DNA from: Minisyncoccota bacterium
Lineage (GTDB): Bacteria > Patescibacteriota > Minisyncoccia > Phycocordibacterales > SBAW01
Assembly: GCA_035546575.1 (NCBI GenBank)
Contig: DASZWN010000001.1
Coordinates: forward strand, 119,254-183,253
Direction: 5' to 3'
DNA: 64,000 bases
A program made the position numbers and the translations under genes. The notes beneath the pieces were generated by a model. The model had not been told where the DNA came from, ran no database searches, and saw nothing but the letters and a program-made list of their open reading frames with translations. This document shows positions 1,276-58,678 of this stretch, in pieces. The first letter of the stretch is position 1. Each line of letters begins with the position of its first letter.

Positions 1276-1293
1276 CATTGTATACTATGTGTA

Positions 1294-2973
1294 ATGCAGG
1301 TTGATGAAGGGCAGCTCAGGGACTTTCTTATTGACTCAGGTCTGATGACCCGGAGCCAAGTGGCCGATGCCACAAGGCACTCGCAAGAGGAAAGCCTGCC
1401 TCTTTATACAACGCTCTCGCAGGGCGGTTACCTTGCGGCCGACGAGCTGCGCCGCGCGCTTGCCCACGCCTCGGGGGTAGCGTTTGTGCAGCTTAAGCAT
1501 GACGACATCTCCGCCAATGCGCTTGTGCTTATACCCGAGCCGGTCGCCCGCACCTACAACATGGTTGCGTTTAAGCAAGACGGCAACATAGTTGAGGTTG
1601 CGATGCTCGACTTGGCCGACTTGTCGCGTATCGACTTTTTGCGCGAAAAGCACGGCCTTACCATTGTGCCGCGGCTCACGACTGCCGAGTCTATAAAGCG
1701 CGCGCTCCATATCTACCAGAAGCATCTTAAAGAAAAGTTTTCGGCGCTGTTGCAGCATGGCACTACTGCTGTCGATGCGCTCATCCACCACGCGATACTC
1801 TCGTATGCCTCGGGCGTGCATCTCGACTTACACGACACGAGCATGTTGGTGCGCTACCGCATACAAGGTGTGCTCCACGAGGCAATGCGCTTGCCTGCCG
1901 ATGCCGCCACGATGCTCGAGCGTCTTAAAGAGTTGGCAAAGTTATCGCTCACACTGCATGTACCGCAAGAAGGCAGCTTTAGAGTCGAGATGGAAGGTGG
2001 GGACCAGGTAGGCGTGCGCGTTGCAACAGCACCAACCGCAAACGGCGAGCGCATGGTGCTGCACTTGACCCCCGATCGTGTTAGCAGCACCGGCTTTACG
2101 CTCTCGTCGCTTGGGCTGCACGGGCAAGCGCTCGAGGAAGCGCATCACATGCTGCAAACACGCTCAGGCCTTATTGTTGTGGCAGGGCGCGCGGGTGCGG
2201 GTAAAACTACAACGCTCTACACACTGCTCGACAATCTCTCGCAGCGCGACGCTGCAATCGCCACTATCGAGAGCGAGATAGAGCATCGCTTCCCGCATAT
2301 TGCACAGACACAAGTACGCCCCGACATCGGCGTAACATACGCGTCTGGTTTGCGTGCGCTGCTTAAACAAGACCCGGACATGGTAATGGTGGGGGAACTG
2401 AATGACGAAAAGACCGCAGCGCTCGCCGCGGCCGCAGCTGCGCGCGGCGTGCTGGTGCTCGCAGGCGTTGACCTGCCTGCCGGTAGGCAGGGGCTCGCTG
2501 CTGCAGCAATAGAGGTGCTGCGCGGGTTTGGTATCTCCGACCATTTGCTCGCGTCAACCTTACGCGGGGTTATAGGCGTGGAAGTTGTACGCAAACTTTG
2601 TAAAGAAGAGCGCGAGGAATATAGGCTTTCGCGCGCCGAGGGCGAGCCCATGGAGGGGCGGGCCAACTTTGGCCACGTGCTAGCGCAGCTTAAAGAGGAG
2701 GGGATAGTCCACAAAGACCTACCCTGGAAGGAATTACTGTTTGCCCGGGCCGAGCCCTGCTCTAACTGCGAGGATGGTTATGTGGGCCAAGTTGGCCTGC
2801 AGGAGGTGCTCCCCATCACCGCTACTATTAAAGAGAAGCTTATGGCTGGGGCCTTGGCCGAGGATATCGAGGCCTTGGCTCGGGCAGACGGGATGACCAC
2901 TACTATAGAAGACGGGCTTTTTAAGGCTGCCCAAGGAATAACAAGCGTTGAGGAGGTAGTTCGGGTTGTCTAA
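1294..2973 (+). CDS. Type II secretion / type IV pilus assembly ATPase, GspE/PilB family
   Basis: N-terminal T2SSE_N/MshEN-like domain. Walker A GRAGAGKTTT. Walker B/Glu box DPDMVMVGELND. C-terminal Cys cluster CSNCEDGY. The His box and Asp box look degenerate. Palindrome copy 2 lies in-frame at 2472-2493 and encodes LPAGRQG. Confidence 0.8.
   Translation: MQVDEGQLRDFLIDSGLMTRSQVADATRHSQEESLPLYTTLSQGGYLAADELRRALAHASGVAFVQLKHDDISANALVLIPEPVARTYNMVAFKQDGNIVEVAMLDLADLSRIDFLREKHGLTIVPRLTTAESIKRALHIYQKHLKEKFSALLQHGTTAVDALIHHAILSYASGVHLDLHDTSMLVRYRIQGVLHEAMRLPADAATMLERLKELAKLSLTLHVPQEGSFRVEMEGGDQVGVRVATAPTANGERMVLHLTPDRVSSTGFTLSSLGLHGQALEEAHHMLQTRSGLIVVAGRAGAGKTTTLYTLLDNLSQRDAAIATIESEIEHRFPHIAQTQVRPDIGVTYASGLRALLKQDPDMVMVGELNDEKTAALAAAAAARGVLVLAGVDLPAGRQGLAAAAIEVLRGFGISDHLLASTLRGVIGVEVVRKLCKEEREEYRLSRAEGEPMEGRANFGHVLAQLKEEGIVHKDLPWKELLFARAEPCSNCEDGYVGQVGLQEVLPITATIKEKLMAGALAEDIEALARADGMTTTIEDGLFKAAQGITSVEEVVRVV
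2472..2493. repeat. Palindromic element copy 2 (cctgcctgcc-ggta-ggcagggg), inside the gspE-like CDS
   Basis: Same core as 1252, 14472 and 32532. In-frame, encoding DLPAGRQGL. Confidence 0.7.
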
Positions 2974-3054
2974 ACAGTAGATTTTAAAAAATCGCCCAAA
3001 TACCTATATTTTAGGCCACATTCTGGCTACTCGAGAAGTAACTTGACCACATAC

Positions 3055-3083
3055 TTGACAAATAGTCCAATAGGGTGTATACT
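3055..3083 (+). promoter_or_regulatory. Sigma70-like promoter, TTGACA-17-TATACT
   Basis: Near-consensus -35 TTGACA at 3055-3060, a 17-nt spacer, and -10 TATACT at 3078-3083. A second TTGACC lies at 3043. It sits in an AT-rich segment downstream of the gspE-like gene. Confidence 0.5.
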
Positions 3084-3111
3084 TATACCAGTTACGATCG
3101 ATTACATATTC

Positions 3112-3162
3112 TTGGGTAAGCAGCTTTTAGAGGAGGCGGCACACCATCATCACCATATATAG
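3112..3162 (+). CDS. Candidate leader peptide, 16 aa, M(TTG)GKQLLEEAAHHHHHI, with five consecutive His codons
   Basis: TTG start about 25 nt downstream of the predicted transcription start. The run CAC CAT CAT CAC CAT lies immediately before the stop. It is followed by a 9-bp perfect palindrome (3158-3176) and a terminator-like hairpin. Confidence 0.3.
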   Translation: MGKQLLEEAAHHHHHI

Positions 3163-3177
3163 ACTGTCTATATATAG

Positions 3178-3228
3178 AGGCGATTGGGGAGCATTTCTTC
3201 TAAAGGAATACTGCCCAATCGCCTTTTT
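3178..3228 (+). terminator. Terminator/attenuator-like hairpin: 11-bp stem (aggcgattggg/cccaatcgcct), 25-nt loop, then TTTTT
   Basis: Perfect 11-bp inverted repeat followed by a T-run on the plus strand. Lies downstream of the His-codon ORF. Confidence 0.45.
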
Positions 3229-3405
3229 CGTTAGGGCGGATCGTTAGCCTGGTCTCTGACAACAAAATAGCAATTAGGAATAAAGCAGAACAATAGTGGC
3301 AAAGCCACAACTGATGTTGTTCCTCGTTGCCGGACTGACTCACCTAGTCGGTACGGTACGAGGGATCGCTTCCGCGATACCCGATAGTTCAACAGGAGAG
3401 AAGTC

Positions 3406-3528
3406 ATGAAGATCATTCGTAAGGTCGGTAATTGGTGGATGAGCCTCAGTCTCGGCGAGGCTGCGATCATCTCGTTCGGTTCGGCTGTGGCGGCAATGGT
3501 TGCCATAGCAGCGATCGTCGCCAGCTAG
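3406..3528 (+). CDS. Small hydrophobic peptide, 40 aa: MKIIRKVGNWWMSLSLGEAAIISFGSAVAAMVAIAAIVAS
   Basis: Strong SD (caGGAGAgaagtcATG). Single predicted TM helix. The stop is followed at once by a 12-bp perfect hairpin at 3536-3565. Not in the ORF track because it is under 60 aa. The overlapping antisense ORF 3231..3506 has poor codon usage. Confidence 0.35.
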   Translation: MKIIRKVGNWWMSLSLGEAAIISFGSAVAAMVAIAAIVAS

Positions 3529-3647
3529 TTCGTTCGGTAACCTGCAATACGTTTTGCAGGTTACCGATCCATTCAAGTACTTGATTCGCTCGAGTATTTT
3601 AATGGGAGTAGATTATCGAAACCACCGAATGCGCGTCGGTATCGCGC

Positions 3648-3914
3648 ATGAGCCCGATGGAGGGCAAGATGTACAAAGTTCAAGTTGGGGTGTGCGGTTT
3701 GGTTCTTTTTGGTCTGCTCGGACTTGTGTTTGTGTACGGAGGGTTATTCGCATTCTTAATCGCGTTTATTGCGACGCTCGCATCTCATCGTATGGCCGTG
3801 GTTACGGCACATGAGGAGCTTGCAGAGCTGACCAAGACGCTGATTTCGCTAAGTGCGGAGAATTCCCGCTACTATCAGAAGTTCGGGGAACTGGAAGAAT
3901 CATCCGCCACCTAA
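3648..3914 (+). CDS. Hypothetical small membrane protein; likely start at the ATG at 3669 (MYKVQVGV...)
   Basis: ORF-track ORF. SD GGAGGG 4-5 nt before the ATG at 3669. One TM segment plus a charged C-terminus. An operator-like inverted repeat lies upstream. Confidence 0.4.
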   Translation: MSPMEGKMYKVQVGVCGLVLFGLLGLVFVYGGLFAFLIAFIATLASHRMAVVTAHEELAELTKTLISLSAENSRYYQKFGELEESSAT

Positions 3915-4049
3915 GCTCAGGGCGTCGTTGATGTAAACGTCTACGACGCCCATCCATTCAAGTACTCAAGATATTGAATATTTGAATGGGTCCATAGTGC
4001 GGCCCTGAACGCGAGCATTGTGCTCGCACAACGCTGAGGAGAAGTTAGA

Positions 4050-4352
4050 ATGGAAATGATGATCACGCGGGTGCACAATATGCCCGCTTTCCTGATCCCT
4101 GGGGCGTACGATCTTCTGCGGCCGGTTCCGGTCGAGGTCGTCCAGCAAGTGCGGCAGGAGCGTCAGCGTCCGGCCAAGCCGTTGGTGGTTCTGGCCAAGA
4201 AGCAGCCGCAGGTGCTGCTGCCTGCATCCATCACCACACCGACGCATTCGACGAAGTTCTACGAGCCCAAGAAGCTCGACTCCTGCATCGTCGTGGTCCG
4301 GCGCAAGGGTCGCGGGGTGCGTTCCCCGCGCGTGAAGTTCCGGGTCCACTAG
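4050..4352 (+). CDS. Hypothetical protein, 100 aa, basic C-terminus
   Basis: SD GAGGAG 8 nt upstream. Strong GC3 bias in this frame, about 62% GC, higher than the neighbouring genes. Operator-like inverted repeat upstream. Confidence 0.45.
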   Translation: MEMMITRVHNMPAFLIPGAYDLLRPVPVEVVQQVRQERQRPAKPLVVLAKKQPQVLLPASITTPTHSTKFYEPKKLDSCIVVVRRKGRGVRSPRVKFRVH

Positions 4353-4693
4353 TCCGAGTTCGGTGGCGATTGTAATGGCTCAAACCCATTACACTCGCCG
4401 CCCCTTTCAAGCATTTATCCGTCTCGATGCCGAGATGAGTGTTTGAAAGGGGAGGTTAGTATGTGCGTACTCCCCACAAGTTCTTCTCGCTGCGCTGGTT
4501 AACGCCCCGTGAGCCATGCGCGCGGTTGGCGCGGCGATCCCGACGAGTGTACTTCGTGCAGGGATCGCCGCCGCCTTCTTCTTTGTGGCAGTTTTTGGGC
4601 TATAAACGGATCCTCTACACTTCAGTCGACACAAATCCTGGGATTTGCATCGATTGGAGCGACCCGTTTGTAGCCCTAAGACTGTCATACCAA

Positions 4694-4718
4694 GCCCTGC
4701 CCAACGGCGGGGCTTTTT
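4694..4718 (+). terminator. Intrinsic terminator (gccctgcc-caac-ggcggggc + TTTTT)
   Basis: 8-bp GC-rich stem with one G-U pair, tetraloop, U5 tract. Ends the structured region 4353-4718 just upstream of tpiA. Confidence 0.7.
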
Positions 4719-4742
4719 CCTACCCAAAAATGGTATAGTTGC

Positions 4743-5504
4743 TTGGTGAAGAAACGCCTCGTTGTCGGTAACTGGAAGATGTATATCACCTCAGCCGACA
4801 CTGCGAGTGAGTTTGCACTAATGTTGCGTAAAAAAGCTCGAGGACTCTCGGGCGCTGAGGTACTTATTGCGCCGTCTTTTACGCTCATACCCGTAGTTGC
4901 TGATGTGCTTGCAAGCTCGAGCATTCGCGTAGGAGCACAAGCGCTCTCAAGCTATACCGACGAGAAACATACCGGCGATGTCTCGGGCGCGATGCTGCGC
5001 GCCGCTGGTGCTAGCTTTGTAATTGTCGGCCACTCTGAGCGCCGCGCTGCGGGCGACACCGATGCGCTTGTGCATGCGCAGCTTGAGAATGCGATATCCG
5101 CAAAGCTTATGCCGATTTTGTGCGTAGGCGAGCTTGAGCGCACGCATGAGGCCGACCATTTTTCTTTTGTTGAAGAGCAGCTCAATACGGCGCTTATGGG
5201 CATTCCCAAAAATTTACTGAAGAAACTGGTGGTCGCATATGAGCCCGTGTGGGCGATAGGAAAAAGTGCTGCAGATGCGATGAAGCCGAGCGATGTGCAG
5301 GAGATGACTATTTTTATACGCAAAATTCTAACAGAGATCCTCGATCGCAAGATGGCACAACGCACTCCAGTTTTGTACGGTGGTTCAGTCGAGCCGGACA
5401 ACGCACCGACGCTACTTAAAGAGGGAGATGTCTCCGGTTTTTTGGTCGGGCACGCTAGCACGAATGTCGACTCGTTTGTGTCTATACTAAAAGCCGTTCG
5501 TTAG
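4743..5504 (+). CDS. tpiA: Triosephosphate isomerase
   Basis: VGNWKM, GHSERR, AYEPVWAIG, YGGSV motifs. TTG start per the ORF track. Confidence 0.92.
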   Translation: MVKKRLVVGNWKMYITSADTASEFALMLRKKARGLSGAEVLIAPSFTLIPVVADVLASSSIRVGAQALSSYTDEKHTGDVSGAMLRAAGASFVIVGHSERRAAGDTDALVHAQLENAISAKLMPILCVGELERTHEADHFSFVEEQLNTALMGIPKNLLKKLVVAYEPVWAIGKSAADAMKPSDVQEMTIFIRKILTEILDRKMAQRTPVLYGGSVEPDNAPTLLKEGDVSGFLVGHASTNVDSFVSILKAVR

Positions 5505-5512
5505 AACCCGCA

Positions 5513-6481
5513 ATGATTAAACCAGTAGTAAGGTCAGTGAGAGATGCAGAGGTGAGCGGCAAGCGAGTGCTCGTGCGCGTCGACTTTAATGTGCCGATCA
5601 AGGACGGCAAGGTGGCGGAAGACATGCGCATTCGCGTGGCAATTCCAACGCTAGAACTCATTCACGAGCACGGAGCGTCGCAAATTGTATTGATCACACA
5701 TATTGGCCGGCCCGATGGAAAGGTTGTCGAAGAGTTACGCGTTGCTCCGGTTGCAGCACGTTTGCGTGAGCTAACCTCAATACCGTTTACCATGGAGGAA
5801 AATCTACGCTTTGACCCAGGCGACGAGGCCAACGACCCCGAGTTTGCAAAAAAGCTGGCAAGTCTCGGAGATATATTTGTAAACGACGCATTCTCGGTCT
5901 CGCATCGTGCGCATGCCTCCACGGTTGGCGTGGCGCAACTCCTGCCATCGTATGCGGGGCTTAATTTGGAAAAAGAGATCGAAAAACTCTCAGGCGCACT
6001 CACGCCGCCCCAAGGCGCGGTCGCGCTCATGGCCGTTACCAAAAAAGACAAGATCCCTCTTATCGACAAATTAGCGGGGCTCTACGCCAAGGTGCTTGTG
6101 GGCGGCCCTGTCCCGCCAGACTACGTGCCGAGCGCGCCAAACATCTTAATTCCAGCAGACGGCATCCCGGAGCTTACAGGCTTGCTTGATATTGGCCCTA
6201 ATACTCGCGAAGCATGGGTCGCATATGTGGCTCAGGCTCCGTTTGTGCTCTGGAACGGCCCTTTGGGTTGGTATGAAAAAGGGTACACGCAGAGTACCGA
6301 TGCTATTGCAAACCAGATCATCGCAAGCGGTACCGAGGCAGTGATAGGTGGAGGCGATACGGTTGCTGCACTTGAGAAGTTTCAATTCAACAGAGAAAAA
6401 GTTTTTATCTCCACGGGCGGAGGAGCAATGCTCGAGTTTTTGATAGCAGGCACCTTGCCCGGGATTGAGGTGCTAAAATAG
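5513..6481 (+). CDS. pgk: Phosphoglycerate kinase (compact, 322 aa)
   Basis: RVDFNVP, DAFSVSHRAH, WNGPLG, GGGDT, STGGGA motifs. Confidence 0.9.
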   Translation: MIKPVVRSVRDAEVSGKRVLVRVDFNVPIKDGKVAEDMRIRVAIPTLELIHEHGASQIVLITHIGRPDGKVVEELRVAPVAARLRELTSIPFTMEENLRFDPGDEANDPEFAKKLASLGDIFVNDAFSVSHRAHASTVGVAQLLPSYAGLNLEKEIEKLSGALTPPQGAVALMAVTKKDKIPLIDKLAGLYAKVLVGGPVPPDYVPSAPNILIPADGIPELTGLLDIGPNTREAWVAYVAQAPFVLWNGPLGWYEKGYTQSTDAIANQIIASGTEAVIGGGDTVAALEKFQFNREKVFISTGGGAMLEFLIAGTLPGIEVLK

Positions 6482-7808: not shown

Positions 7809-7826
7809 CCCTATAATTGTAAGCAT

Positions 7827-8888
7827 ATGCAAAGTGTCAAAACAAAAGTAGCTGAGCTGACCCGCTTCGCCAAGGCGTTCCTTTTAGCGGCACTGGTGCT
7901 GCTTGCCGCAGGTGCCTATGCCTGGACTGCGCCAACGCAAGCGCCACCTGCTGGCAACGTACAACCGCCTATCAACGCAGGCGGCTCATATCAAACAATC
8001 GGGATTCTTGCCAACGGCACGACTACCGCCATTACCGGCGGTCTCTTATCGAGCGATGTGTTTGTGGTGGGCTCACCTACACCAAGCTCTGCGCCGCATG
8101 GCTCTATTTGTCTTTCCGGGTCGTGCATTACGAGCTGGAATCAGGCGGCTGGAGGCACCGACTATCAAGTTTTTACGTCGAGCGGTACTTGGACAAAGCC
8201 TGCCGATACGAGCGCATCGTCGCGTACGCTTATCGAGTGCTGGGGCGCAGGCGGGGGAGGCAGCAATAACGGAGGCGGGGGAGGCGGTGCATACGATGCC
8301 GTATGGTCCCTTACCTCTTCACTTAGCTCGACCATTGCGGTAACCGTAGCTACAGCGCCGGCTACGTCGGTGGCGGGGGGCGACTCCTCTTTCGGTTCGC
8401 TCGTTATTGCCAAGGGGGGAGGCGCCGGCGGCGCTGGCGGAGGCGGAGGAGGCGGAGGATACAGCGCAACGGGGAGTAACGGCACTTCTGCTGGGGGAGA
8501 CGGCGGTAATCCGAAGGGTAGTTGGATCTACCCGGGGGTAATTCCTTACTGTCGAGGAGGTACAAGCAGCAAGGGGGCCACCGGCGGTTCCGCATGCGGC
8601 GGAGGTGGCGGCAACGCCAATACGGAAGGCTACGATAAGGGCGGTTATTCCGTCACCGGAGGGGGCGGCGGTGCCGGTAATCACAATGATTCCAACCCTG
8701 CTAACGGTGGCGACTCTGTGTATGGCGGCGGCGGCGGGTCGGCAGGATCTTCCGGGGGTACTGGCGGCCAAAGCATGTTCGGCGGCAATGGCGGGGCTAC
8801 GGGCAGTGCCGGAATTGCCCCCGGCGGCGGCGGCGGGCGCAACGCGCAAGGTGCTCGCGGTGAGTGCCGCGTGACTACGTTTAAATAA
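7827..8888 (+). CDS. Secreted glycine-rich protein carrying a TWTKP...LIECWGAGGGG module
   Basis: Signal anchor. The module FTSSGTWTKPAD...TLIECWGAGGGGSNNGGGGGGAY recurs at residues ~1000-1050 of 15723..19997. Long Gly/Ser/Thr/Asn-rich tail. Confidence 0.7.
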   Translation: MQSVKTKVAELTRFAKAFLLAALVLLAAGAYAWTAPTQAPPAGNVQPPINAGGSYQTIGILANGTTTAITGGLLSSDVFVVGSPTPSSAPHGSICLSGSCITSWNQAAGGTDYQVFTSSGTWTKPADTSASSRTLIECWGAGGGGSNNGGGGGGAYDAVWSLTSSLSSTIAVTVATAPATSVAGGDSSFGSLVIAKGGGAGGAGGGGGGGGYSATGSNGTSAGGDGGNPKGSWIYPGVIPYCRGGTSSKGATGGSACGGGGGNANTEGYDKGGYSVTGGGGGAGNHNDSNPANGGDSVYGGGGGSAGSSGGTGGQSMFGGNGGATGSAGIAPGGGGGRNAQGARGECRVTTFK

Positions 8889-29480: not shown

Positions 29481-29772
29481 TTTGTAACCTTTTTGTTTCT
29501 ACTCAGTTTTTATAAGTGGATAGAGTAGTCTGACAGTGGAGGCCTGTGAGGGGAAACCCTCGGACGCTCACATACGAGCTCACACATTCCTTTTGAGCCT
29601 CTGTATTTTTTACACGCTCTCCCACTCCATCTTCGTTCTTTCTTCCCCCACCCGCCTCATCATTTTTGATGAGGCATATTTCTTGCTACACTCAGGTTGT
29701 CCGGTGCCAGAAGGTATTGAGGAGGGGCGCAAGCTCTGAATCAGAGCTCTGGCAAACGACGGCCGTAACTAT

Positions 29773-29820
29773 AACGGCCCTAGGGGGTGGAGGCGTCAAA
29801 ACCTCCACCCCTGCCTTTTT
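29773..29820 (+). terminator. Terminator-like hairpin (ggggtggagg/cctccacccc 10-bp stem, then TGCCTTTTTC)
   Basis: Perfect 10-bp stem followed by a T-run, inside the rpsJ-rplC spacer. Confidence 0.5.
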
Positions 29821-50837: not shown

Positions 50838-51095
50838 TTAGTTTCTCCGCCGCAGCACTTTCTCGAAGTCGGAGGAAAAACTGACCACCATTTCACCTCG
50901 GCTAGAGGTAAGGTTGATGGTGCGGCTTTCCCCGGCTGGGGACTCAAGGATCACCTCCAGAGTATGCAGCTCCGCCGGAATATCCGGCGAGGCGTATTCT
51001 TCTGCGGCCTTTTTGAGGCCCTCCGGCGAGTTATCGAACTTCTGGTCCGGATGCGGCAGCACCCGGTACGCTCTAACAGAGTATCTGCGTGCCAT
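50838..51095 (-). CDS. Hypothetical protein, 85 aa
   Basis: SD AGGAG before the ATG. Confidence 0.45.
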   Translation of the reverse strand: MARRYSVRAYRVLPHPDQKFDNSPEGLKKAAEEYASPDIPAELHTLEVILESPAGESRTINLTSSRGEMVVSFSSDFEKVLRRRN

Positions 51096-51165
51096 CTAGC
51101 GCTCCTGTAAAACAGGGGTGGGGTGCATCTATTTGCACCTTACCGTATATCCCTGGATTCCTCAA

Positions 51166-51552
51166 CTATCTCCCAACCCAACTGTTCTTAAAAAACCTTT
51201 GTCTCCACAGTTTTAAACAAAAACCAATAAGATTTCCTAAAATAGTCACACCAATAAATCCTAAATATATCTTTAGGCTAAGGTTATACAAAAGAAAGAA
51301 GCCCAGAAAAGCATATAGTGTAATAATAATATAGTCGGCTTTTTTCCCTAGGGCGCCAAAAATAACACTAACCCATAGAGCGTAAGAAAATACTAAGGCT
51401 AAAAAATCTGTAGCGAACCCCTGGAATGCCCCAAAAAAAGTGGAAGATTCACTATAACCAAGGTATTGAGTTACAAATGGAATAAAGCCATCTACTAGTA
51501 TAAATCCAATTACCAATACAAAAATTAACCAAAACATTCTCATGAGCACCAT
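51166..51552 (-). CDS. Hypothetical membrane protein (AT-rich gene)
   Basis: Four predicted TM helices. About 35% GC segment. Start trimmed to the internal ATG to avoid overlap with the upstream gene. Confidence 0.45.
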   Translation of the reverse strand: MVLMRMFWLIFVLVIGFILVDGFIPFVTQYLGYSESSTFFGAFQGFATDFLALVFSYALWVSVIFGALGKKADYIIITLYAFLGFFLLYNLSLKIYLGFIGVTILGNLIGFCLKLWRQRFFKNSWVGR

Positions 51553-51560
51553 TTTAGTAA

Positions 51561-53807
51561 TTACTGCGTCTGATGATCTCTGAACCATGTTGTGTATTTG
51601 TGTATTAAGTCTACACCATCTTTCATATTACCCTTGTCCTTTGCCAACAGATCCATGTCAGCTAAAGTCAACTTAATAGCTGCGGTCGTTATAGTAAGAA
51701 GTAATGCGTTTGCCTTAGTGCGTTTCGCAGGGATAACCTTCTCGATAGTTTCTTTAGTCTTAAGGAGCTCCTTTAATGCTTTGCAGTCAAAGACTAAATT
51801 GTCAGCAACAGCTTTTTTACCAATCCACTTGTTTTTGTAAGCCAGAGTCATGTCCGTAACACAAGTGTCTGGAGTGAGTGTGGTTAGTGGAGGCGGCGGG
51901 GAAGCGTCGGCAGTAATTGTAACCGCTGTGGTCGTAGAGGATAAGTAAAGCGAATTGTTTATTACTTGGTTGAGGGTAGTGGTGCCGCTCACGTAAGCCT
52001 CGTTTGTGGTTGTGCTCTGTATATAGCTTGTAGCGATGGTGTAAGTGCCATTGCCAGTACCCTTGGTTTGCACTTTATATGTGCCAGGCAAGGGGTCAAA
52101 AATAATTGCGTACTCATGTTCGGCATCCGGGCCTGAGTACAAAGCGTTAGGAATTTCGTTAACTACTGACCCGGTCGTAATATCTTTACCTATATGCGCG
52201 CCATTAGGAGCAGTAATCTCCATATTGATAGGAGAGAAAAGAAGAAAGAATAATATTGTATGATTTTCGGCAAAACTACCTATGGTTTGCATCAAATCCT
52301 TAAATTCCGAAGGCGTTGGTGATAGTTTATTTATCAAAACAGAGTAATCAGCATCTTTAAGAGGTACGAACACATTTCCCACGATTATCTGTGGATCCTT
52401 GTTATTTAATTGTCTAAATATATAAGCTGCACTTGTAGAAGCTACTTCTGTATGGTTCACCCCGTGAAACTCCTTATCAGCCGCACCAACAAGATTTTCT
52501 ATACTTACTCTTGGAACCGTCACGTCTCCTGTGTCAAAATAAGTCGCCGTAATTTCTCCATCTTGCCACTTTGGCAACACCGTGGAAGGTTTGGTAATAA
52601 AAAAACTGATGGTATTGCTAAGATCTGTATCAGCCAGAATAGTGTCAGTCCGTGCCGCCTTTGTAATCTTTGCGAAGTTAGACGCAATATTCTCTAGAAA
52701 TATATTTTTAGGTGGAGTGATGGTGTTGAAGTCGGAATCAAACAAATAATCATACGTAGGCAAAAGTTGTTGTATCGAAAGAACAGGCTTGTTTCTTAGG
52801 TAACTAAATGTATCGTTATAACCTGCTTGCTTTGCTTCTTTAGTAAAAACTCTTTCCAGCAGCATGTTTTGGAGTTTTGAGAAAATATCGTTTGAATCAG
52901 GGTCAATCTGACCACCTTCCCACATCTTATAAGCTTTAGGGGAACCTGATAGGGGGGTTGCGAGGAAGAAGACCTGGTCGACATCGTTTTTGTACCCAGG
53001 GCTCTCGATGTATTGGGCCGCAACCAGTCCTCCCATCGAGTGTCCTATCAAGTTTACATGGCTACAGTTGCAGATAGTTTTTATATCCTGGATCTTTTTT
53101 GCCAACACCGATGCGGTAACTTCGTTCGGCTCCTCCCAATCGTAGGGGAATTTAAAAAGAGTTTTACCGTCTACATAGCCGTTGGCTAGGAAAGTGTCGA
53201 CCAAGTTGTCGTAAATATGAGTAATTGGATCGAGTACCCACTCGCCGTTCTTTTGCCATGATCCGAGGATCCCAGGAATGATCACCACCGGCTCATACTC
53301 GCTCGCGGGTACGCCGCCCCACTTCCACTGTATGATCGCGTAGTTATTGCTTGGCAGTAGCGTGCCGGTAGTCGAGCCTGTTTTAAATGCGGCATCAAAC
53401 CTAGCAGCTTCGGTGCTTGAGCTGTATCCGTATACTACGGAAAAATAATTCTGATCCTGCGCTGGGCTGCCAAAGTTATTGGTATCTTCCTGTACAAGGG
53501 TAGGAGAGTCGCCCTGTATTTTATCACCAGCCACAAATATCGAGTTGCCAGGTACTCCTTTGTAGGTGGCGATCGTTTTGGTGCCGGGGATCTTCGAGGG
53601 AATGCTATACACGCACGGCCCCCCATTTTGAGCTACATAATGCTTTCCTGACTCAAAAGAAAATTTGTATGGACTACAGGAGAAGCTGAATGGTTGGGCT
53701 CCATATACAGGATCAAAGGAGAGGTTGGTAGTGTTGGCAAGGGCTACCGATGTTCCCAGAGATAGGAATATGCCTGCAACCAGAGAGATAATGCCAACTA
53801 CACGCAT
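51561..53807 (-). CDS. Secreted alpha/beta-hydrolase (lipase/esterase-like, GHSMGG nucleophile elbow) with C-terminal beta-rich domains
   Basis: Signal peptide. GxSxG motif as GHSMGG. The N-terminal ~430 aa are paralogous to 53985..57239. The 3' half is markedly AT-rich. Confidence 0.8.
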   Translation of the reverse strand: MRVVGIISLVAGIFLSLGTSVALANTTNLSFDPVYGAQPFSFSCSPYKFSFESGKHYVAQNGGPCVYSIPSKIPGTKTIATYKGVPGNSIFVAGDKIQGDSPTLVQEDTNNFGSPAQDQNYFSVVYGYSSSTEAARFDAAFKTGSTTGTLLPSNNYAIIQWKWGGVPASEYEPVVIIPGILGSWQKNGEWVLDPITHIYDNLVDTFLANGYVDGKTLFKFPYDWEEPNEVTASVLAKKIQDIKTICNCSHVNLIGHSMGGLVAAQYIESPGYKNDVDQVFFLATPLSGSPKAYKMWEGGQIDPDSNDIFSKLQNMLLERVFTKEAKQAGYNDTFSYLRNKPVLSIQQLLPTYDYLFDSDFNTITPPKNIFLENIASNFAKITKAARTDTILADTDLSNTISFFITKPSTVLPKWQDGEITATYFDTGDVTVPRVSIENLVGAADKEFHGVNHTEVASTSAAYIFRQLNNKDPQIIVGNVFVPLKDADYSVLINKLSPTPSEFKDLMQTIGSFAENHTILFFLLFSPINMEITAPNGAHIGKDITTGSVVNEIPNALYSGPDAEHEYAIIFDPLPGTYKVQTKGTGNGTYTIATSYIQSTTTNEAYVSGTTTLNQVINNSLYLSSTTTAVTITADASPPPPLTTLTPDTCVTDMTLAYKNKWIGKKAVADNLVFDCKALKELLKTKETIEKVIPAKRTKANALLLTITTAAIKLTLADMDLLAKDKGNMKDGVDLIHKYTTWFRDHQTQ

Positions 53808-58269: not shown

Positions 58270-58308
58270 AGAAAGAAAACGCCCGAAAGGGCGTTTTCTT
58301 TATATCTG

Positions 58309-58678
58309 TGGAAGTGGAGAGATTTGAACTCTCGTGCAATATAAGATAGAACGCAGGTCTACAAGAGATAGACTATCTTATTTTCTTAGACTCAGTTGTA
58401 AGAGATAGACAGAATAAAACTGAGCTGCAGATCCTTTTTCTTGATTAGCAGCGAATCACTTTGCCAACCACAGCCCGATATATAACACCCTATCTCCCTA
58501 CTCAGACACTCGGGAGGGGATGGACCTTAGGCTCGCGCAGTGGCGAGAGAAAGATCATTCACCGAGAAATACGGTGAGCTAACTGATTTTGCAGTTATGG
58601 TTTGGAGCTTTTAAAGCAGATCTCCACTGCTCCCTTGCGTGTGAACTATTGATTACATTGTCTAAGCCTGTCACTCCC
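58309..58678 (-). ncRNA. ssrA: tmRNA (SsrA), about 370 nt, encoded without a CCA end
   Basis: Minus-strand RNA begins GGGAGUGACAGGCUUAGACAAUG... (compare the GGNUUCGACA consensus). It ends ...GAGAGUUCAAAUCUCUC-CACUUCC-A, with a T-arm and a 7-bp acceptor stem containing the G3-U70 wobble typical of Ala identity. Resume codon GCA near nt 87. Adjacent to smpB. Confidence 0.7.

Follow-up and report, generated by a model that had tools for sequence, protein, structure and literature searches.

A conserved non-coding leader RNA of Patescibacteria whose first module is a candidate transcription attenuator

Introduction

In a 64,000-nucleotide stretch of DNA from a Minisyncoccota bacterium (contig DASZWN010000001.1; the whole stretch is called the window here, and all coordinates are positions in it), we are inclined, with somewhat better than even confidence, to read positions 3055-3232 as a promoter followed by the opening module of a non-coding leader RNA conserved in Patescibacteria (Parcubacteria-like), which acts as a transcription attenuator. 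This reading is carried by a covarying hairpin (H1) with an invariant motif resembling a Shine-Dalgarno (SD) sequence, by a strong hairpin with a U-run that recurs at the same position in divergent lineages, and by the complementarity between the H1 motif and the apex of that second hairpin. A previous sequence-only reading of the region had seen in it a short open reading frame (ORF) ending in five His codons, and had likened it to a ribosome-mediated histidine attenuator or its relic. The general attenuator anatomy of that description (promoter, leader, terminator and possible alternative pairing) stands, while its histidine-specific part does not.

Protein-dependent attenuators with an anti-antiterminator are established in B. 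subtilis, namely for rplJL (PMC4538822) and infC (PMC1865079). In kind, the element described here would belong with such factor-dependent terminator/antiterminator leaders; as a family, it appears to be uncatalogued. Neither of its two modules matched an Rfam 15 family in the window or in 35 homologous loci (region 2000-6000 scanned at E <= 10, the whole window at gathering threshold, 20 homologous loci at E <= 1 and 15 more at gathering), and the element was undescribed in our literature searches on structured RNAs of the Candidate Phyla Radiation (CPR), with a sequence-string search returning primers only. At gathering threshold, the window yields only a tmRNA and a fragment of the large-subunit (LSU) rRNA, both away from the leader. 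At the thresholds used, these scans exclude His_leader, PyrR, r-protein leaders, SRP, RNase P, 6S and ribozymes.

Loci homologous to the window leader or to its second module carry L-numbers (L001 etc.) here. The metagenome scan used the conserved downstream core (module 2) as its pattern and returned 54 loci, and 12 leaders with a homologous module 1 make up the comparison set. Relatives of the ATPase (PilB) encoded upstream of the leader all come from metagenome-assembled genomes of Patescibacteria/CPR (labelled Parcubacteria, Paceibacterota, Adlerbacteria and similar).

Results and Discussion

Organization and conservation of the leader

The elements of the promoter and of module 1 are the following:

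3055..3083 (+): sigma-70-type promoter (TTGACA 3055-3060, 17-nt spacer, TATACT 3078-3083; 11/12 match to the consensus)
3112..3162 (+): 16-codon ORF with a TTG start at 3112, reading MGKQLLEEAAHHHHHI, and TAG at 3160-3162; judged not to be a gene
3115..3145 (+): hairpin H1 (core 3120-3140), the proposed anti-antiterminator (outer stem covarying, inner stem with tandem G.U, loop AGA)
3124..3206 (+): proposed antiterminator, a predicted fold that excludes both H1 and the terminator
3142..3156 (+): linker (CAY)x5 (the 'His codons'), which pairs with the terminator 5' arm in the alternative fold
3155..3175 (+): hairpin H2, an AU-rich palindrome (arms 3156-3164/3166-3174) that forms in both conformations and caps the antiterminator helix
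3176..3228 (+): predicted intrinsic terminator (hairpin 3176-3226, core 3179-3223, U-tract 3224-3228)

The promoter of the leader is the strongest in the window and the only site of 11/12 quality in the scanned region (2000-6000), where a weak site lies at 2983. It belongs to a conserved motif (TTGACAAA..GGGTGTATAMT) that occurs once in the 64 kb and is found at the same place in L001, L002, L006, L012, L013, L017 and about 25 metagenome loci. Transcription would start near A3090. Between the terminator and the first downstream ORF (3228 to 3406), the same scan found no promoter-like site.

Conservation extends well beyond the promoter. In L001, the closest genome locus, the intergenic region is 87% identical over 367 nt (PilB being 81% identical at the protein level), and in divergent lineages the order of elements is retained: the promoter, 25-40 nt, a hairpin with the invariant motif, one or more variable hairpins, and a strong hairpin with a U-run. 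Every copy of module 1 seen in the window or in the loci stands in cis, upstream of module 2. In seven lineages (L002, L013, L024, L031, L046, L050 and L062) the same promoter runs straight into module 2, with no H1 or terminator, which marks module 1 as a regulatory insert between the promoter and its cargo.

H1 and its invariant motif

Hairpin H1, predicted by both RNAfold and RNAalifold (the latter recovering it from the close family with compensatory changes), carries at 3126-3136 the invariant sequence UUUAGAGGAG(G), which is SD-like and has no start codon after it. In an alignment of 13 distinct sequences from at least seven lineages, 88.9% of the cells are paired (52-74% in slid controls) and five pairs have changed on both sides (21 cells), a covariation score that none of 500 shuffles reached. 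The inner motif UUUAGAGG(A/G)G is invariant across these lineages while the outer stem covaries. Since neither the shuffles nor the slid controls come up to these values, H1 is a real structure with an invariant apical motif, and its three G.U pairs identify the + strand as the transcribed one. The AU-rich hairpin H2 that follows is kept in close relatives with different apical sequences, and is absent or replaced in distant lineages.

The terminator and the alternative pairing

The terminator hairpin (-30.4 kcal/mol) consists of a core, GGCGATTGGGG / CCCAATCGCC, with an apical extension, and is followed by TTTTT; the fold of the whole 143 nt from 3090 to 3232 reaches -48.3 kcal/mol (z = -5.7 relative to shuffles). 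The close family shows compensatory changes in this hairpin (RNAalifold), and a strong hairpin with a U-run occupies the same position in at least nine lineages, with unrelated stem sequences; as far as the alignments can tell, the terminator is conserved as a function and not as a sequence. With a stable G+C-rich hairpin, an immediate U-tract and a conserved position, 3176-3228 has what is expected of an intrinsic terminator and is predicted to work as one. Module 2 follows it after about 22 nt and the first start codon after 178 nt, so that the window has the arrangement of an attenuator, a terminator in a 5' leader with promoterless genes downstream.

The alternative terminator and antiterminator foldings, whose computation the sequence-only reading had suggested, were computed, and the two pairings are predicted to be mutually exclusive. 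The proposed antiterminator helix joins C3124-G3136 (CUUUUAGAGGAGG) to the terminator apex at U3194-G3206 (UUUCUUCUAAAGG), and G3139/C3140 to G3191/C3192. Further pairs come from the linker, between C3144-A3146 and U3185-G3187, between A3149-C3151 and G3182-U3184, and between C3153-C3154 and G3179-G3180, in both the nascent and the constrained folds. When the nascent RNA has reached 3210, this structure is the one of minimum free energy (-30.7 kcal/mol), as it is in the full leader when the 3' arm of the terminator is blocked (-27.2 kcal/mol). Because neither H1 nor the terminator can coexist with the antiterminator state (-27 to -31 kcal/mol), the predicted layout of the leader is the textbook one of an anti-antiterminator, an antiterminator and a terminator. 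The same antiterminator architecture is predicted in six close homologs, and in 16 of 19 homologs the nascent fold joins the GAGGAG bases to the 5' arm of the terminator.

The complementarity between H1 and the terminator is also well above background. Duplexes of the H1 motif with the terminators of the system range from -8.8 to -15.4 kcal/mol, compared to an average of -6.6 (sd 2.3) for 126 control sites of the window with a hairpin and T4 (Mann-Whitney p = 2.5e-8), with the window's own terminator in the top 0.8% of the controls. A CU-rich apex complementary to the H1 motif is carried by terminators that are otherwise unrelated in sequence, in at least nine lineages. A shuffle test of the duplex against the 5' arm alone gave weak z-scores, the shuffles retaining the CU-rich composition, and the comparison with control terminators was used instead.

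A non-coding role for the five His codons

The short ORF exists as the sequence-only reading described it, with a TTG start and 16 codons, among them CAC CAT CAT CAC CAT (3142-3156), and so do the other parts of that description: the near-consensus promoter (TTGACA-17-TATACT, 11/12 match, at the coordinates given there), the palindrome overlapping the stop codon (arms 3156-3164 and 3166-3174), the terminator-like hairpin (3176-3226) running into TTTTT (3224-3228), and the lack of his genes downstream, where three small ORFs without a Pfam family precede the genes for triosephosphate isomerase (TIM) and phosphoglycerate kinase (PGK). What we consider almost certainly wrong is the function proposed for them, namely that a ribosome stalling at the five His codons, in response to histidine or a metal, would control the terminator. 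The idea draws on the joint presence of ORF, His run and terminator in the window and on the rarity of the run, since five or more consecutive His are expected 0.003 times per 64 kb (first-order Markov model) and only one such run occurs. This rarity is weaker evidence than the raw number, because homopolymeric amino-acid runs of at least five residues occur 46 times across the six frames of the window, and this one was picked after the fact.

The sequence itself speaks against translation of the ORF. There is no SD upstream of TTG 3112 (no GGAG, GAGG or AGGA in the preceding 17 nt), and the one stretch that resembles an SD, GAGGAGG (3131-3137), is internal to the ORF and has no start codon behind it. 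The start and the His run are absent from all 12 homologous leaders, in which no two consecutive His were found in any frame, HHHHH being confined to the window; the expectation that relatives would share a His-codon leader was thus not borne out. At the corresponding position, relatives read AHQSNHI, AHQGNHI, AANQSNI or AHQQHI, or are shifted in frame by indels and interrupted by stops (L029, L030 and L056 being of the latter type). A canonical start codon is missing in L001, L028, L035 and L019; in L001, a 1-nt deletion removes the TTG start and the codons at the His position are GCG CAC CAA AGC AAC CAT (AHQSNH). The window differs from its relatives by five adjacent substitutions (AAGCA in relatives, TCATC in the window) within an otherwise variable linker, so that, going by these alignments, the His run represents a 5-nt cluster of substitutions particular to this lineage, with no coding role. 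The pattern of conservation is that of an RNA structure (covarying stems and G.U pairs), not the codon conservation expected of a leader peptide.

A leader peptide translated from the conserved SD-like motif was also considered and rejected, as a start codon at a suitable distance is lacking in nearly all lineages checked: no AUG, GUG or UUG lies 5-15 nt past GAGGAGG in the window, L001, L019, L029, L030, L040, L045, L065 or L026. In L020/L051, a GUG 5 nt past GAGGAG opens a 29-codon frame, and the other listed lineages have no such start or frame.

The regulatory sign of the proposed stall is also wrong. The terminator is kept in constrained folds in which a ribosome footprint at the His codons or the stop (3135-3165 or 3148-3176) is masked, only the alternative pairing being removed; a stalled ribosome would therefore favour termination, the opposite of biosynthetic logic, because the codons lie in the antiterminator strand. 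Relatives support this placement, their counterpart of the (CAY)5 linker being CACCAAAGCAACC: in the form CACCAA(N)GCA, its CCAA pairs with UUGG of the terminator 5' arm. With the linker of the relatives in place of its own, the antiterminator state of the window shifts only from -27.8 to -29.3 kcal/mol. Since the relatives' linker pairs with the same arm and the swap barely shifts the energy, the 'His' stretch is best described as one strand of the proposed antiterminator. Compared to the His operon leader (RF00514), the likeness lies in a short ORF close to the promoter that contains adjacent His codons, and in the hairpin and U-tract behind it, whereas the window leader has no SD, no conserved start, no conserved His run and no his genes, and its His codons lie in the antiterminator strand instead of in 'region 1'; additionally, the Rfam His_leader model found no match in 2000-6000 (E <= 10). 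The metabolism of Parcubacteria, moreover, is described as severely reduced (PMC4508563), which sits poorly with such a biosynthetic control. The histidine attenuator, resting on a coincidence in a single genome, should be dropped.

A possible mechanism

A mechanism that would accommodate these elements can be outlined as follows. With transcription starting near 3090, the nascent leader could adopt two folds. In one of them (H1, H2 and the terminator), the polymerase would stop at 3224-3228 and release an RNA of about 140 nt. In the other, the 3' half of H1 (with the invariant SD-like UUUAGAGGAGG) and the linker would pair with the 5' half and apex of the terminator, blocking its nucleation, and the polymerase would read into the boxA-like module 2 and the promoterless, variable small ORFs. 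By default the antiterminator can form first, allowing read-through, and the choice would probably be made by a trans-acting factor recognizing the invariant H1 loop and motif. By stabilizing the anti-antiterminator H1 or by masking the SD-like strand, such a factor would favour termination, in the style of PyrR, L10 or L20. It could be a conserved RNA-binding protein, or its part could be taken by the 30S subunit through the anti-SD tail. The sequence AGAGGAGG is complementary to the 3' tail of 16S rRNA, CCUCCUUU, and for this reason the 30S subunit can be put forward as a speculative alternative to a protein factor. What the analysis shows is the conservation, the structures of H1, the terminator and module 2, the complementarity of the H1 motif to the terminator apex, and the lack of conservation of the ORF; that the leader is transcribed, that it switches in vivo and which factor acts on it are parts of this scheme that we infer.

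The closest precedents are the B. subtilis attenuators of the pyr genes (PyrR), of rplJL, bound by L10(L12)4 (PMC4538822), and of infC, bound by L20 (PMC1865079). As in these systems, the window leader would have three mutually exclusive elements, with a conserved purine-rich motif in the anti-antiterminator hairpin and no leader peptide, and binding of the factor would favour termination. The differences are in the cargo, which consists of variable small ORFs and not of a defined pathway, and in the conserved motif, which is an SD mimic. With PyrR leaders, only the regulatory logic is alike: the PyrR binding site (RF00515) has no match in region 2000-6000 (E <= 10) or in 20 homologous loci (E <= 1), and there are no pyr genes downstream.

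An extended version of this mechanism, which we regard as rather unlikely, is an uncatalogued attenuator common to Patescibacteria, with the orphan SD mimic UUUAGAGGAGG as sensor strand; binding of the nascent RNA by free 30S subunits (through the anti-SD tail) or by a dedicated protein would prevent the antiterminator, a pairing of the SD mimic with an anti-SD mimic, and lead to termination. If true, the SD-mimic sensor would couple a boxA-led array of hypervariable small (often membrane) proteins, located beside a pilus ATPase gene, to translational capacity.

Weighing the attenuator against other explanations

Several observations count against an attenuator. The terminator state is far more stable than the antiterminator (-48.3 vs -27 kcal/mol), so that a switch must be kinetic or driven by a factor, and no candidate for a binding protein has come to light. 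The antiterminator helix is 95.7% paired, compared to 93% in a +2 slide, with a single double-sided change, and its covariation is no proof of the helix since the purine and pyrimidine strands can pair in several registers. The system hairpins used in the complementarity test come from about nine lineages and are not fully independent, relatives of the L001 type have a weaker U-tract (UUUGUCUGU), and the transcription start, the termination point and read-through are all steps that we infer. Furthermore, the function could reside in the terminated 140-nt RNA itself.

This last point leads to a stand-alone small RNA (sRNA) gene, an alternative that the sequence-only reading had also named and that we consider unlikely but still a serious competitor: the 140-nt RNA would be an abundant product in its own right, read-through into module 2 would be incidental, and the RNA might serve as a sponge or decoy presenting its SD-like GGAG/GGA motifs (in H1 and in the terminator apex) to an RNA-binding protein or to the 30S subunit. 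A near-consensus promoter unique in the window and paired with a strong terminator, two SD-like motifs held in hairpins (with a 10-nt motif invariant), and a unit that behaves as a discrete module, present or absent between promoter and module 2, are all in keeping with this. Nevertheless, the gap between the U-tract and module 2 is only about 22 nt long, with no promoter after the U-tract, so that downstream expression needs read-through; besides, module 1 occurs only in cis upstream of module 2, and the specific complementarity of the terminator apex to the H1 motif is something that a plain sRNA terminator would not need. The stability gap and the want of covariation proof for the antiterminator would equally suit a constitutive structured 5' leader, in which H1, H2 and the hairpin with its U-tract are stability or processing elements and a leaky terminator sets the level without any switch. 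An orphan SD near the 5' end is a stabilizer of mRNA in Bacillus, the STAB-SD of B. thuringiensis cryIIIA being the precedent, and the window leader resembles it in that an SD-like sequence is conserved in the 5' leader, lacks a start codon and is potentially bound by the 16S 3' end, except that the SD mimic of the window sits in a covarying hairpin and is complementary to the apex of a downstream terminator. Such a leader, which leaves unexplained both the complementarity of unrelated terminators' apices to the H1 motif and the complementarity between linker and terminator 5' arm kept in every close homolog, is in our opinion decidedly unlikely.

Highly improbable is a locus of the type I toxin-antitoxin kind, with the hydrophobic peptide encoded at 3406-3528 as toxin, its translation being controlled by a structured 5' untranslated region and an upstream sRNA. 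The first ORF does encode a 40-residue hydrophobic peptide behind a long structured leader, and several homologous loci also begin with small hydrophobic ORFs; in L002, L017, L020, L034 and L064, however, the leader RNA precedes an unrelated and often non-hydrophobic ORF, no sRNA-target pair, antisense or complementary, was seen, and synteny points to a chromosomal leader between pilB and tpiA. Other likenesses were examined by eye and dropped: RNase P CR-I/CR-IV (module 1 is missing altogether in some lineages and no model matched), small SRP RNA (no GGAA/AGCA motif), domain V of group II introns, TRAP or HutP triplet repeats (too few), CsrA sites (only loosely ANGGA) and a Cas9 repeat/tracrRNA (CUUUUAGAG, AAUAGCAAUUA..AAUAA), the last being most likely a coincidence, given that there are no cas genes and no array.

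Module 2 and its boxA-like motif

The features around and downstream of the attenuator are the following:

1294-2973: upstream gene, encoding a T2SSE/MshEN pilus-type ATPase (PilB)
3250..3385 (+): module 2, a second conserved structured RNA, starting about 22 nt past the U-tract
3251-3263: boxA-like motif GGUCUCUGACAAC, at the start of module 2
3393-3399 and 3406-3528 (+): SD AGGAGAG and the first small ORF (40 aa, hydrophobic)

Module 2 is more widely conserved than module 1, being present in five genome loci (L002, L013 and L017 among them) and in the 54 metagenome loci, usually between pilB and tpiA-pgk and also in other contexts; the viral contig collection contained no matches to it. Its structure comprises a helix (C3286-G3288/C3311-G3313) around a hairpin (3296-3308), a long hairpin (3315-3341/3345-3370) and an alternative hairpin (3362-3382), with the segment GGGAUCGC (3362-3369) able to pair in either the long hairpin or the hairpin 3362-3382. 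Across its 30 pairs, 96.8% of the cells are paired (35-48% in slid controls) and 13 pairs have changed on both sides, with a score that none of 500 shuffles attained.

The family motif at the start of module 2, GNUCUYUGACAAC, keeps a constant spacing of about 65-70 nt to the module-2 core. It is similar to the consensus of boxA, GYTCTTTAANA (PMC5725501), matching it at 8 of 11 positions in the window, which is not significant for this single sequence, and at 10 of 11 in L018, L021 and L071. BoxA-dependent antitermination of long untranslated transcripts operates in rrn operons and CRISPR arrays (PMC7665894). Like the boxA/Nus leaders (rrn, suhB and CRISPR arrays; PMC5725501, PMC7665894), the window has a putative boxA near the 5' end of a long, poorly translated transcript with a very strong promoter; it differs in matching at 8 of 11 positions only and in having C at position 6, where a C4T/T6C double mutant abolishes the function of the E. 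coli boxA. Being located downstream of the attenuator terminator, the motif cannot explain read-through of that terminator, and we treat the apparent boxA likeness of module 2 as a lead only. A weaker boxA look-alike is found at 3096-3110: the 5' end of module 1 has, in relatives, ..UUACAUA.. or ..UUGACAUAGG.., and both modules begin alike.

Some leaders are longer than that of the window. A conserved 'module 1b', absent from the window, lies between the terminator and module 2 in L017, L023, L027, L029, L040, L047, L053-L055 and L057; it is composed of GUUAGGACA, a long hairpin with a AAACYAAACCAG loop and then AUGUCCUCGCUACGACAGNAUGUGCAGUCGGUGAGCGG. Leaders with module 1b reach 450-600 nt, and further upstream domains are seen in L018, L023, L027 and L057. 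Two other RNAs were recorded near homologous leaders: a LOOT RNA in L058 at 7823-7952 (+) (RF03000, 57.2 bits, above gathering), 1.8 kb from the leader and on the opposite strand, and a sub-threshold type I hammerhead match in L060 at 1290-1352 (+) (27.2 bits vs 34), downstream of module 2.

Gene context

Downstream of the leader, the three small ORFs encode 40, 88 and 100 aa and precede the genes for TIM and PGK. The 40-aa ORF is the first gene depending on read-through of the terminator, and the first ORF after the leader is unrelated from locus to locus, differing in almost every one. An inverted-repeat element of about 35-50 nt (CCNTTCAAG...TTTGAANGGG) occurs in three copies (3569-3607, 3953-3990 and 4403-4452), each of them after a small ORF and a hairpin with no U-tract (3537-3566, 3916-3951 and 4363-4400, respectively) and before the next ORF. 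Within the window it is restricted to this island, and it is also found in L001, L010, L012 and L025. Together, inverted repeats and small ORFs look like a cassette array. The island ends before tpiA with a long imperfect hairpin (4584-4689) and a clean intrinsic terminator (GCCCTGCCCAACGGCGGGGCTTTTT, 4694-4716); a weak Phe_leader match to 4584-4716 (25.9 bits, gathering 55) is probably due only to this shape of hairpin and terminator.

Elsewhere in the window, a 111-nt intergenic LSU rRNA match (29694-29804 (+), model positions 1856-2001, 58.8 bits, above gathering) lies directly upstream of the gene for ribosomal protein L3 (29895-30551), for which it may be a rRNA-mimic autoregulatory leader. 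A tmRNA gene with the tag peptide AKSVSSPYFSVNDLSLATARA occupies 58306-58678 (-), and 51001-53000 has a low GC content (0.41 vs about 0.53 elsewhere), possibly being foreign DNA.

Implications

The regulatory RNAs of these reduced, host-dependent Patescibacteria are almost unknown. The leader described here represents a family of two-module structured leaders from dozens of uncultured Patescibacteria, absent from Rfam, which heads a hypervariable set of small ORFs in the interval from pilB to tpiA. If conserved attenuation does rest on an orphan SD mimic, this leader, together with a boxA-like element, would give a handle on how these bacteria control their repertoires of surface and small proteins, and one that is tractable without culture.

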